From Chloroflexota bacterium (lineage in GTDB: Bacteria; Chloroflexota; UBA11872; VXOZ01): a stretch of DNA of 64,000 bases. This document shows positions 36,224 to 40,290 of the stretch, one piece after another (within the stretch, counting starts at the first letter, position 1; each line of letters starts with the position of its first letter). Location: the NCBI GenBank assembly GCA_022824225.1, contig JAJEAH010000042.1:2216-66215 (forward strand), given 5' to 3'. The translations under genes and the position numbers were made by a program. Under the pieces are notes generated by a model that made no database searches, was not told the origin of the DNA, and worked only from the letters and a program-made list of their open reading frames with translations.

Positions 36224-36637
36224 CTATAGGTGGTGGATTTCAACGTCGTCCCAGTGCCGCTGGAAGTACTCGGCCACCAGCCGCCGGTGACAGTAGTTGG
36301 GTTCATGCTCGCTGCAGAGCAGGCAACTGTTGGCGATGGTTGCCGGCAAGCGCTTGGCGATGCGTCTTCCCTCGGTGGGTTGCAAACCCTCTTCGAGTAT
36401 GCGCCGCGCTTGCAACAGCGCGAGAAACTCGCGTTCATAGGTCTCCCAGTCAATGCTGCCGTCGCGGTAGCCGTCCAGCAGCGCTTTCGTGGGCGCGAGG
36501 TCCGGCGCGTGGATGTACCGCATCCGGCAAACCCTCCGTAGAAGATACGGCAAGTCGTCGCCGTGCGCAAAGCGCGCCAGTTGTGAAGTGTTTTTCAGCC
36601 GCACGTCCACCAGCCGTTGCGCGCCGGAAGCGCGCAA
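36224..36637 (-). CDS. DUF488 family protein (N-terminus unresolved; overlaps the upstream DUF488 gene)
   Basis: CSEHEPNYCHRRL is the DUF488 C-terminal motif. The in-frame codons upstream of the nominal TTG start encode LYTIGFTKKTAATFFDLL, which is the DUF488 N-terminal motif, but no ATG/GTG/TTG start exists before the preceding stop. Confidence 0.5.
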   Translation of the reverse strand: MRASGAQRLVDVRLKNTSQLARFAHGDDLPYLLRRVCRMRYIHAPDLAPTKALLDGYRDGSIDWETYEREFLALLQARRILEEGLQPTEGRRIAKRLPATIANSCLLCSEHEPNYCHRRLVAEYFQRHWDDVEIHHL

Positions 36638-36690
36638 TAGATCGAAGAACGTCGCGGCCGTCTTCTTGGTGAAGCCGATGGTGTAGAGTC

Positions 36691-37392
36691 TCAGGGCGCA
36701 CGCTCCCCAGCGCCGCCGCCCGCGGCCGGATCGCGCCAGCGCGCGCCCACGCGCTGCGCCCGGCGGGATACGGCGTCCGCGATCACTTCCTGGCGGGAGC
36801 GGAAGAGGTCGCCGTGATGAGGCAGTTTGAATTCATCCAACAGCCGGTTGAGGGCGTCGTCGTGGTTCTCCAAGCTGCCGTCGGCGTGGATATGCGCCAC
36901 GGATACTCCCTGCTTTGCCAGCGTCTGGGCGATCAAGAGCGTGCGGTGGCAGTCCAGCGGCTCCTTCTCGCTGCACATTAGAGCCAGGCGGCGCACCACA
37001 GGAGCATCCGTTTGTCCCCGCATCACGTGCGGGGCAGGCTCTGAGCCTGTCGAAGGATGAACGGATGCGGCATCCAGCACAAATTCAATGCCGTGCTTGA
37101 ACGCAGCGGTTGCCGCCAGCTTGCCATAGGCAACGCGCCCGTCGGCGTCGTAGAGACCGCGGTCAGCCGGTTGTCCGCCCAGTTCCTTGCCCCGAAACGT
37201 ATAGCCGATGCCGGCTTCCTGCAGCGCATCGGCCAGGACTTCCTTATTGAAGTGAGGCATGTACCGGCTATAGGGGGCCGAACGGACATCCACCACCGCG
37301 GCCACGCCGTGGGCCCGCAGCAGCGCCAAGAACGCGGCGGGTTCGTGATTGGAATGTCCGATAGTAAACACCGGGTTTTGTTCTACGGTCAC
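36691..37392 (-). CDS. DUF488 family protein
   Basis: 233 aa. VFTIGHSNH, VVDVRSAPYS and CSEKEPLDCHR are DUF488 hallmarks. Confidence 0.65.
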   Translation of the reverse strand: MTVEQNPVFTIGHSNHEPAAFLALLRAHGVAAVVDVRSAPYSRYMPHFNKEVLADALQEAGIGYTFRGKELGGQPADRGLYDADGRVAYGKLAATAAFKHGIEFVLDAASVHPSTGSEPAPHVMRGQTDAPVVRRLALMCSEKEPLDCHRTLLIAQTLAKQGVSVAHIHADGSLENHDDALNRLLDEFKLPHHGDLFRSRQEVIADAVSRRAQRVGARWRDPAAGGGAGERAP

Positions 37393-37509: not shown

Positions 37510-38271
37510 CTAGAGCTCGATGATGGCGGCGATGAGTTTGTAGGCATAACCCTGATATGGCTCGCCCAAGCTTACGGTGAGATAGCACGGACCCAGCGTG
37601 TACGTATTATTGGGCCGGTTGAGGTATGTTTCTTCGTATTCCGGCGCTGTCACCCAGAGGCGGTAGGCCGCGCCGGCATGCCAGAAGCGACCTTTGATGC
37701 GCCGCCGGAAGTCGCCCTGCGCCGCTCTTGGCTGGATGACGTCGAGCTCCAGGGCGTCAACCCGCGCCAGCCGCAGCGAACTACGCGGCGATTGGACGTT
37801 TCGCGGTGACTGCGCGCCCCGCGACGATTGCGCGCCCCGCGACGATTGCGGGTACGCCACGGGCAGCCTGTCGTTCTGCCCGTGGTGCGTACTGAAACCG
37901 TCTATCCACAGCGGCCCCGCCGGGTCCGCCAGGCGGTCGAGGACTTCCGGCCGCAGCCGATCTACCAGCCGCCAGCGACGCTCCGGGTCCAGTAACCAAT
38001 TCTCCTGTTGGTGTCCTTGCGGCCGCGCCCGGCGCAACGGCACGTCCAGCACGTCGAGCACGCGCGGCTCAGCGCCATCCGGCGAACCGGCAGCGCCAGC
38101 GGCGTACTGCCGCTCGCGCGCGTTGACGGCCGCGTCCGCCCGATCGCTCACGGGCCGCACCCAGCCGCCGGGCCGTCCGTCCGCCATCAGTTCCTTGCCC
38201 GCGATGCAACGACCGCCATCCTTGCGTGAATTGGCAAGGCACACGATGCGCTTAACGCCGCCGTCGGCCAT
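37510..38271 (-). CDS. hypothetical protein, RIVCLANSRK-motif family, paralog A
   Basis: N-terminal KRIVCLANSRKDGGRCIAGKE and C-terminal YTLGPCYLTVSLGEPYQGYAYKLIAAIIEL are shared with the adjacent paralog. It carries an internal SSRGAQSSRGAQ tandem from a duplicated 18-bp unit. Start chosen at MADGGVKRIV. Confidence 0.5.
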   Translation of the reverse strand: MADGGVKRIVCLANSRKDGGRCIAGKELMADGRPGGWVRPVSDRADAAVNARERQYAAGAAGSPDGAEPRVLDVLDVPLRRARPQGHQQENWLLDPERRWRLVDRLRPEVLDRLADPAGPLWIDGFSTHHGQNDRLPVAYPQSSRGAQSSRGAQSPRNVQSPRSSLRLARVDALELDVIQPRAAQGDFRRRIKGRFWHAGAAYRLWVTAPEYEETYLNRPNNTYTLGPCYLTVSLGEPYQGYAYKLIAAIIEL

Positions 38272-38309
38272 GGGAATGCTTCGCCTCACGGTGCGCACGC
38301 CCAAGCACG

Positions 38310-39035
38310 TTAGCCGCCAAACAACGACGGTTGCTCCACGCCGGCGGTCAATTCCGCGATGGTCGTCTTGTCCGCCAGGGCAATGATCGCCGCGACAAGC
38401 TTGTAGGTATAGCCCCGATAGGACTCACCGAGGCTCACGGTAAGGAAGCACTCACCAAGCGGATACGTGCCGTTGGGCTTGGAATGGTACGCTCGCTCGT
38501 ATGCGGGGTCCGTTATGCTCAGCCAGTACTCCACCTCATCATACCGGAATCGACCTGCCAGTTTTCCTCTCGTGACTGATAATTCCAACCAGGCTACGTG
38601 AATGAAACGCAAGGAACTGACGAGGTCCGCGGCGAGTCTCTGGGGGATGCGGTCGTTTCTGCCGCTGCCACTGCTGTAGCCATTGACCCAGAGCGGCGCT
38701 CCGTCATCGACCAGAGAGTTGAGCTCCGGGCTTTCGAGGCGGCCTATCTTCAGCCAGAAGCAGCTTGTGTCCAGCAGCCAGTTTTCCCGCTGGTAGCTTT
38801 CAGGTTGCGGCTCAAGTACGGGGACGACTATGACGTCCAGCAACTGCGGTTCGCTGCGGTCCCGGTATTGCCGCTCGTAGTCGTTCAGTTCGCCGGTCGG
38901 CCGCTCGCTTACCGGCCGTACCCATACCCCGGGATCACTGGCGGCCGCGATCTCTTTGCCGGCGATGCATCGCCCACCATACTTGCGCGAGTTTGCCAGG
39001 CAGACGATACGCTTGCGGTTAGGGTTTGCCGCCAT
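38310..39035 (-). CDS. hypothetical protein, RIVCLANSRK-motif family, paralog B
   Basis: 241 aa. RKRIVCLANSRKYGGRCIAGKE ... YPLGECFLTVSLGESYRGYTYKLVAAIIAL. No family recognised. Confidence 0.5.
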   Translation of the reverse strand: MAANPNRKRIVCLANSRKYGGRCIAGKEIAAASDPGVWVRPVSERPTGELNDYERQYRDRSEPQLLDVIVVPVLEPQPESYQRENWLLDTSCFWLKIGRLESPELNSLVDDGAPLWVNGYSSGSGRNDRIPQRLAADLVSSLRFIHVAWLELSVTRGKLAGRFRYDEVEYWLSITDPAYERAYHSKPNGTYPLGECFLTVSLGESYRGYTYKLVAAIIALADKTTIAELTAGVEQPSLFGG

Positions 39036-39541: not shown

Positions 39542-40290
39542 CGCTGCAAGTTTCTACACTAAAAGTGTCGTTAATATAATACCGTTGGCAGTCGTCCACC
39601 GCGCGGCCTAGCAAAGACCGCGCTTGGCTCACGGTGTCTTCAACGCCGGCGGCGGTCGCTCGTGGCGGACGCCCGTCACTCCCTTGCAATGAGACCGCAC
39701 GCGTTCCGTCGTTCCGGCGCAGGCCGGAAACCATCTTCGTCCGCTCCTGGACTCCGGCTTTCGCCGGAGTGACGTTTTGGGAAGCCGCCGTCGCCGCTCA
39801 GACCGGAGGCGTACTCTCAATCGTTGACGTGCTCTCTTTCACTAACGTGCTTTAATCTTTACAAGGATTATGCAAAGCCGCGCCTCGGATACCGCCCTTC
39901 GGTGGCACACACCCGGTACGGGGACAATGGCGGTTTCCGTCTAACGTGTGCCCGCAACGCGGAACGGGGCGGGAACGCACACGCGCACAGGCTGCAAACC
40001 TACGCTACCGGCCCACACTCCCGCGTAGACGGGAATCCGTTTAGCGCTTGCCGGTCGATTCCACCGGTTTCCCTACCCCGACGCACACGGGAGACCGCAT
40101 GGCGGACCGAGCAAAACGCGTACCAGCGGCCCTGCGCCCCCCGCGCACTTGGGAATCCGCAGTGTTTGTTGGGCCGGGCGCTGGCTTCCGGCTGCCGCCG
40201 GCATGACGGCTTGGATTCGGCCAAACGCAACTCCGGGCGCTTGCTTGCCCTATGCGCGCCGCAGACCGAGCGCTGCCCGGTACGCGGGCC

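Follow-up and report, generated by a model that had tools for sequence, protein, structure and literature searches.

Here, we examined a 64,000-nucleotide stretch of contig JAJEAH010000042.1 from a Chloroflexota bacterium (hereafter, the window, that is, the whole 64-kb stretch), and in particular two adjacent genes on its minus strand, U, the upstream copy of 241 amino acids (aa), and D, the downstream copy of 253 aa. This pair is a duplicated DuOB, the first gene of a conserved three-gene operon that is listed by PADLOC as the candidate system PDC-M45. The operon in the window consists of the following genes:

38310..39035, minus strand: DuOB paralog U, 241 aa, ATG start, intact; dual OB-fold protein, PDC-M45A homologue.
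37510..38271, minus strand: DuOB paralog D, 253 aa from the ATG at 38271, intact; the downstream, ancestral-like copy.
36691..37392, minus strand: DUF488 protein of 233 aa, third operon gene and PDC-M45B homologue (PF04343, E = 3.6e-19; PDC-M45B, E = 5.3e-68).
36224..36709, minus strand: DUF488-N3a protein, fourth gene and PDC-M45C homologue (PF22751 and PF04343; PDC-M45C, E = 4.6e-48).

Transcription, all from the minus strand, runs in the order cupin, U, D, DUF488, DUF488-N3a. An earlier note, made from the sequence of the window alone, had described two adjacent paralogs of 253 and 241 aa, and both the listing of open reading frames (ORFs) and BLASTP (46% identity between U and D, E = 5e-68) bear this out; the frame of D is open to 38304 and would encode 264 aa if a TTG start were taken instead of the ATG. 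The N-terminal motif KRIVCLANSRK(D/Y)GGRCIAGKE is present in both copies as quoted there, and so is the shared segment Y(T/P)LG(P/E)C(Y/F)LTVSLGE(P/S)Y(Q/R)GY(A/T)YKL(I/V)AAII, but what had been called an invariant C-terminus is not the end of U, where 23 residues follow. Similarly, the tandem DUF488 genes and the cupin do flank the pair, but, because all the genes lie on the minus strand, the pair sits upstream, not downstream, of the DUF488 genes and downstream of the cupin.

The description of the pair as an unrecognised family had to be abandoned. Both copies are full-length members of the Pfam family PF22557 (DuOB, dual OB-containing domain), covering profile positions 1-210 of 210 with scores of 197.5 and 220.4 bits against a cut-off of 27 (E = 3.5e-65 for U and 3.6e-58 for D), and both match the PADLOC model PDC-M45A (1.7e-80 for U and 7.6e-75 for D). 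The PADLOC component models A, B and C are all matched by adjacent genes of the window in the same gene order, at E-values of 1e-48 to 1e-80; the window differs from the catalogued system in carrying two A genes and in lying in no obvious defence island. A match to a characterised family, which the earlier note had named as grounds for giving up its claim, was thus obtained in part, in that the family is named and catalogued but has not been experimentally characterised. No NCBIfam model matches any of the four system genes, a sequence search of the PDB with the family profile gave no match at E up to 10, the plasmid homologues are annotated as “hypothetical protein”, and literature searches turned up no paper naming PDC-M45, or DuOB together with DUF488. 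The names DuOB and DUF488-N3 presumably come from Burroughs and Aravind 2023, who reportedly predicted DNA-end-processing roles in conflict systems for the clade of RapZ-C, DUF488 and DUF4326.

The family is large and the operon is widespread. A word-indexed search returned 1392 clusters at 90% identity, all of them PF22557, and an exhaustive profile search yielded 3782 clusters at 50% identity at E up to 1e-3, with 1032 at E up to 1e-30; in a collection of 185,579 species, each represented by a single genome, relatives are encoded by 412 stretches, as confirmed by tblastn. Operon order and context were read in 79 fetched genome loci (numbered here with the prefix L, proteins with P) from at least 10 phyla or classes, with about 50% identity to the query. 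These loci come from Chloroflexota and Dehalococcoidia, several proteobacterial classes, Acidobacteriota, Latescibacterota and Spirochaetia, as well as Longimicrobiales, Rhodothermales, Acidimicrobiia, Thermodesulfobacteriota and Binatia. In nearly all of them, DuOB, DUF488 and DUF488-N3a follow one another on one strand as adjacent genes, in agreement with the Pfam-labelled gene calls, and the stop and start codons of the operon genes often overlap. The window conforms to this arrangement, its DuOB pair (PF22557) lying directly upstream of the DUF488 and DUF488-N3a (PF22751) genes; it departs from the rest of the family in that the DuOB gene is doubled in tandem, with U bearing a tail and a changed second-barrel loop, and D a repeat-derived loop insertion. 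The link between DuOB and the DUF488 genes, seen in the window, recurs across phyla. Furthermore, there are natural DuOB-DUF488 fusion proteins of about 445 aa (P0164 and P0247), which argue for physical cooperation of the two proteins. Four other homologues (P0019, P0047, P0071 and P0078) carry a conserved N-terminal extension of about 100 residues (about 90-130; YPYRPDYAVPPGW...FWL..E..Y); by eye it is like a HigA-type helix-turn-helix, but this reading is not supported, given that the extension has no Pfam match even at E 10.

The operon is found not only on chromosomes but also on mobile replicons, which bears on the question of whom it serves. The module is carried by 19 plasmids, including small IncFII-type ones, and the operon also resides, with one DuOB copy, on the Agrobacterium plasmid pAt1D1108a; a single-copy DuOB protein of Agrobacterium is WP_121557645.1. 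On the IncFII plasmid pCF1807-5 of Citrobacter freundii (L097, 3989-5652), a DuOB-like gene is followed by DUF488 and then DUF4326, and this three-gene group sits between ParA and CcdAB, among genes for partition, toxin-antitoxin systems and transfer; DuOB homologues at about 30% identity are encoded on small plasmids of enterobacteria, Acinetobacter and Moraxella. The hosts of this distinct three-gene variant are cultivable. In addition, three viral-classified contigs (L088, L090 and L092) hold a two-gene variant in which DuOB is directly followed by DUF488-N3a, without the middle DUF488. One locus, L002, lies between recombinases, with a relaxase in its flank, beside a helicase with DEAD, Helicase_C and MZB domains. 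Such cases could be taken to mean that the module works on behalf of mobile elements, for example by countering host defence or by protecting or processing single-stranded plasmid DNA as it enters, and that the chromosomal copies are domesticated remnants. However, viral contigs with the operon number only 9 of 2.9 million, there is no operon match among 50,697 phage genome records, most of the loci are chromosomal, and the window locus shows no signs of a mobile element, so that we regard this alternative as very unlikely.

What DuOB might do is suggested by its predicted structure. The earlier note had proposed Foldseek comparison along with a survey of phyletic distribution and gene neighbourhoods; both were carried out, and they gave tandem-OB (oligonucleotide/oligosaccharide-binding) neighbours and an operon conserved across phyla. 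The AlphaFold2 models of U (predicted local distance difference test, pLDDT, 87.6; predicted template modelling score, pTM, 0.85) and D (pLDDT 90.5; pTM 0.88) are both all-beta, with two beta-barrel halves and a short helix after each. In Foldseek comparison with the PDB, with the template modelling (TM) score normalised by query length, every neighbour was an OB-fold binder of nucleic acids: the leading neighbours of U are HIN-200 domains (p202, AIM2, IFI16, p204 and MNDA; probability up to 0.99), followed by Teb1, POT1, CST and RPA, whereas the leading neighbour of D is CST/CTC1, followed by HIN, RPA70 DBD-A/B, SSB and LEF-3. HIN-200 domains, built of OB folds in tandem, serve as DNA binders in mammalian innate immunity. 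They share with DuOB two consecutive OB-like barrels within about 200 residues, and for AIM2, IFI16, p202 and p204 the probability with U is 0.7-0.99 over 217-249 aligned columns; yet the identity to U is 5-9%, with TM 0.28-0.35 and a root-mean-square deviation (rmsd) of 8-11 Å, and for D the TM is 0.15-0.35, with CST and RPA ranking as high as HIN. Membership in HIN-200 was rejected, as a Pfam scan at E up to 0.1 gives only DuOB and neither copy reaches a TM above 0.5. The likeness is one of analogy in tandem OB architecture, not of membership. The OB-fold binders of single-stranded DNA (RPA70 DBD-A/B, POT1, CST/CTC1, Teb1, bacterial SSB and baculovirus LEF-3) are neighbours of both models through a tandem barrel or a single one of about 90 residues (rmsd about 5 Å), but they have no sequence relation to DuOB and are missing its invariant hairpin, CLANSRK..RC.AG.E. 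By analogy with these proteins, DuOB may well bind nucleic acids.

That hairpin belongs to a strikingly conserved set of residues. Alignment of 29 family sequences reveals 52 invariant columns, all of which are kept by both U and D, and 30 of the 52 lie in the first barrel, including C12, N15, S16, R17, K18, R22, C23, E28, R40, S43, R45, E54, R55 and Y57. These invariant residues span the whole length of the protein, so the earlier impression that the middle regions of the two copies diverge was not sustained. The only invariant cysteines of the family are C12 and C23, and the third one, in the shared C-terminal segment (LG.C), is not conserved. Such a pattern invites the alternative explanation that DuOB is an enzyme or a small-ligand sensor, in which the two invariant cysteines and the N, S, R, K and E residues of the first hairpin would form a catalytic or metal/cluster site, possibly one shared by two protomers, which would give a U/D heterodimer a meaning. 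The concentration of invariant columns in the first barrel, their complete retention in both paralogs and the identity of about 50% across phyla, which is high for a DNA-binding scaffold, all speak for it; conversely, no enzyme is found among the PDB structural neighbours of either model (Foldseek), an invariant His or Asp triad partner is missing, each chain has two invariant cysteines only, and no sequence relation to any enzyme was found in Pfam, NCBIfam or the PDB. On this evidence, we hold an enzyme or sensor to be quite unlikely.

The tandem DuOB pair is, among the loci examined, confined to one clade of Chloroflexota, namely, the window and ten further loci (L001, L004, L008, L010, L015, L016, L017, L021, L022 and L024). 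Neighbour joining places all U copies in a single clade and the D copies in another, together with single-copy genes of three related Chloroflexota, with two D copies falling on long branches outside the D clade. The tree indicates one old duplication, of which D is the copy that is more like the ancestor. Comparison of orthologues by the Nei-Gojobori method gave ratios of nonsynonymous to synonymous substitution rates (dN/dS) of 0.14-0.25 for U, 0.15-0.29 for D, 0.14-0.32 for DUF488 and 0.10-0.23 for DUF488-N3a. All four genes are under purifying selection and, for this reason, neither copy is decaying.

Paralog D contains a conspicuous repeat, which Tandem Repeats Finder identifies where the earlier note had reported an 18-bp tandem duplication:

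37808..37850, minus strand: 18-bp tandem repeat in D, 2.4 copies, 96% matches, encoding SSRGAQSSRGAQ.

The window sequence recurs without a mismatch, across the 2680 bases compared, in an independent short-read contig (L095; Logan SRR16351689), which stops within this repeat, at window position 37821. The repeat belongs to a stretch of about 20 inserted residues that lies between the barrel halves of D, where the alignment has a gap in all other family members, and residues 141-160 have a pLDDT of 54-59 in the AlphaFold2 model, consistent with a disordered loop in an otherwise intact fold. A second short tandem repeat in D, with a 9-bp unit in 2.6 copies (38040-38062), encodes part of VLDVLDVPL. 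Together with the neighbouring DUF488-N3a gene, which is devoid of a canonical start codon (see below), the low-complexity insertion might suggest that one copy, most likely the 253-aa D, is a decaying pseudogene left by a recent duplication. The evidence runs the other way: the frame of D is intact and its Pfam match full length, it retains all family-invariant residues and 71 of the 75 positions conserved in single-copy DuOBs, comparison with the L001 orthologue gives a dN/dS of 0.15, the duplication is old and kept in 11 loci, and the insertion lies in a disordered loop of an otherwise confident model. The invariant residues, the dN/dS and the conserved positions rule out decay, so that the probability of a pseudogene is next to negligible, and the condition under which the earlier note would have withdrawn its claim is contradicted for both copies. 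Instead, as that note surmised, both have been retained as functional genes, each with a full-length Pfam match, all invariant residues and a dN/dS within 0.14-0.29, in a pair that persists in 11 loci.

The two copies have not changed to the same extent. The single-copy DuOBs, 69 of which were compared, share 75 positions with a conservation of 90% or more; 71 of these are retained in the D clade and 64 in the U clade, and the changes in U cluster in a basic loop of the second barrel (G..RRRVQGRF). In addition, U is extended at the C-terminus:

38313..38381, minus strand: C-terminal tail of U, residues 219-241, ALADKTTIAELTAGVEQPSLFGG.
38319-38333, minus strand: Q-P-S-L-F motif in the U tail, residues 235-239 of 241.

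A tail of 23-31 residues follows YKL(I/V)AAII in 11 of the 11 U copies and is found in none of the D copies and none of the 69 single-copy DuOBs. The window tail ends in TAGVEQPSLFGG, where relatives have ESTAQIPLFTL; across the U copies, the endings are QIPLF(T/S)L, or QIPLFTH in L010, in one subclade, EQPSLFGG in the window, EQPPLFGG in P0002 and a degenerate EQPLLPGG... in L001. Among U tails, the linker is variable and the motif conserved, and the AlphaFold2 model of U has a pLDDT below 50 for residues 223-241, that is, a disordered tail. The consensus for binding to the beta sliding clamp is Q-L-x-L-F, usually located at the C-terminus (PMC4549789). The U tail resembles such segments and is a candidate clamp-binding element of the Q-x-x-L-F type: Q-P-S-L-F (QIPLF in relatives), which lies in a disordered segment, is near the C-terminus, as the clamp motifs of polymerases, repair proteins and transposases usually are, although position 2 in the window is P, not L, and the L001 orthologue has QPLLP. 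Outside the U copies, Q..LF within the last 12 residues is rare: among 2375 ORFs of these loci, 15 have it, and most of those 15 are U copies.

Both partner genes match the DUF488 model PF04343, and the motifs T-I-G-H/F-S/T and C.E....CHR are seen to be conserved in alignments, from which the two proteins appear to belong to the rhodanese-phosphatase superfamily. The 233-aa DUF488 protein keeps the family motifs TIGHS, DVRS.PYSR, ELGG and C.EKEP..CHR, and PF22751, the second model matched by DUF488-N3a, is described as a DUF488 of the “active DUF488-N3 subclade”. The DUF488 proteins of the Chloroflexota clade share an insertion (VHPSTGSEPAPHVMRGQTDAPVVRR in the window, 36970-37070) that is missing from the homologues of other phyla. 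In the window, the DUF488-N3a frame is open back to 36709, with no canonical start codon upstream of the TIGFT motif (36638-36709). The start codon of close relatives (TTG, ATG or GTG) is TGG here (36707-36709), and at the overlap with the stop codon of the gene before it, most other phyla have TTGA but the window has CTGA, with CTG at 36692-36694; a canonical start does not occur until the TTG at 36637, which is the mechanical ORF start and would delete the TIGFT motif. The dN/dS of the window gene is 0.13 over 154 codons, including the extension. There are three possibilities, namely, a CTG or coupled start, an assembly error in the base concerned, or impairment of the predicted active enzyme.

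In the Chloroflexota clade, the operon occupies a fixed site: EF-G, cupin, then U, D, DUF488 and DUF488-N3a, then DedA/VTT and a DnaJ-domain protein. The GC content of the locus is 0.63-0.66, equal to that of the flanks, by which a compositionally foreign locus is ruled out. The cupin gene, which the earlier note took for a possible linked gene, is a matter of local synteny in Chloroflexota only. It is missing from the loci outside this phylum, except for one cupin ORF on the opposite strand in L074, and in several relatives a restriction-modification-like pair, Vsr-fused cytosine methylase (Vsr-Dcm) and DUF4928, is inserted between the cupin and the first DuOB gene (L004, 5376-7948, and likewise L005 and L013, whereas L010, L021, L024, L041 and L047 have a similar spacing). 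Given that this pair separates the cupin from U, the cupin is a neighbour and was rejected as a component of the system. The gap between cupin and U in the window is only 170 bp, and the site between cupin and DuOB behaves like a small integration hotspot for restriction-modification-like genes. On the other side of the cupin, the gap of about 750 bp to EF-G (39542-40290) has no convincing ORF, tRNA or Rfam match and is about 300 bp long in the relative L004. Scans of the locus for promoters and terminators gave nothing beyond shuffled expectation, the 117-nt gap between D and DUF488 folds no better than its shuffles (z = -1.3), and Rfam and tRNA scans gave no match near the locus.

Among the roughly 69 loci with one DuOB copy, 20 have, as the next gene upstream of DuOB and in the same orientation, one of about 416 aa that encodes AlbA_2 (Schlafen-like) and HATPase_c_4 domains (L003, 6734-7984; the same position in L020, L025, L032, L040, L044, L050, L054, L063, L066, L068, L069, L078, L084 and others). 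This gene may be an optional fourth component or a regulator and is absent from the window. The flanks are otherwise heterogeneous, with housekeeping genes mixed with defence genes, the latter including mad2, mad3 and mad8 of MADS, Hma genes, DruE of Druantia, AriA of PARIS, AbiL, HEC-01, and restriction-modification systems of types I, II and IIG; on pAt1D1108a, the operon adjoins a CBASS-HORMA system, an HTH/ImmA pair and a TcmP/DUF5131 pair. The neighbourhood pattern fits a conflict-related module without proving it.

The same surroundings can be read in another way, namely, that the operon is a resident module for DNA repair and end processing, not immunity, in which DuOB would bind damaged or single-stranded DNA at replication forks, the DUF488 enzymes would clean blocked termini, and the duplicated copy with its putative clamp-binding tail would couple the module to the replisome in Chloroflexota. 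The fixed chromosomal site among housekeeping neighbours, the flank-like GC content and long vertical retention under purifying selection would all be expected of such a module, there are housekeeping neighbours at many other loci, too, the helicase of L002 lies upstream of the operon, and clamp-type motifs are typical of replication and repair proteins (PMC4549789). By contrast, the sporadic distribution across phyla, with about 50% identity between them, the frequency of defence genes and mobile elements as neighbours, the presence of the operon on plasmids and a few viral contigs, and its listing by PADLOC as a defence candidate are at odds with a purely resident function. We consider this explanation unlikely.

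We instead favour, as the probable if by no means certain role of DuOB, that of a nucleic-acid-recognition subunit presenting DNA to DUF488 proteins, whose targets would be terminal phosphate or sugar groups. Linkage in an operon, the existence of fusion proteins and an OB-like fold are observations; the substrate and the chemistry we infer. The two OB-like barrels of DuOB would bind single-stranded DNA, DNA ends or another nucleic-acid ligand and would pass the bound ligand on to the DUF488 proteins for processing of a phosphate or sugar group at its terminus, with the outcome that invading DNA is disabled or that ends are repaired. In the Chloroflexota clade, D would keep the original role, whereas the derived U, with its altered basic second-barrel loop and flexible Q-x-x-L-F tail, probably adds tethering or partner binding, possibly to the beta sliding clamp, and U and D probably act in one complex with the DUF488 pair. 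An extension of this scheme, in which U and D form a heteromer and the U tail docks on the beta sliding clamp, stationing an end-processing or immune complex based on DUF488 on clamp-loaded replicating DNA, strikes us as unlikely.

Several considerations weigh against a DNA-presenting role in immunity. The PDC-M45 label is one of unvalidated candidacy: PDC systems are putative defence candidates from guilt-by-embedding, most of them without validation (PMC12988326). Literature searches gave no experiment on DuOB, DUF488-N3a or PDC-M45. The structural matches have weak scores (TM 0.2-0.4, E no better than about 1e-3, identity 5-10%) and, being matches of predicted models, would support OB-like barrels at the level of fold class, not a specific function or family. 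The dense set of invariant polar residues in the first hairpin of DuOB, two cysteines among them, is more readily explained by a specific pocket or by catalysis than by DNA binding of a generic kind. With its fixed housekeeping position, flank-like GC and vertical inheritance, the Chloroflexota operon resembles a resident function in repair more closely than it does mobile immunity. In the window, the system may be impaired, its DUF488-N3a gene being devoid of a canonical start codon. Finally, the U/D heteromer and clamp binding are pure inference.

As it stands, the main effect of the finding is to turn the call of an “unknown family” into that of a catalogued but uncharacterised one. The family and the operon are already catalogued, and what is new here is a lineage-specific duplicated DuOB whose derived copy carries a tail. 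The operon is widespread, being found in many phyla as well as on Agrobacterium and enterobacterial plasmids, and has a Pfam name and a PADLOC candidate label, with its function given by prediction. The Chloroflexota variant is a natural experiment, in which an ancestral-like copy stands next to a derived one with a short linear motif that points to a partner. If it is true that the tail binds the sliding clamp, this would show where in the cell the system acts and would help to assign a mechanism to the whole family. Ultimately, docking on the clamp would be a direct link of a candidate defence system to the replisome, via a bacterial tandem-OB sensor analogous in architecture to the HIN-200 sensors of eukaryotes.

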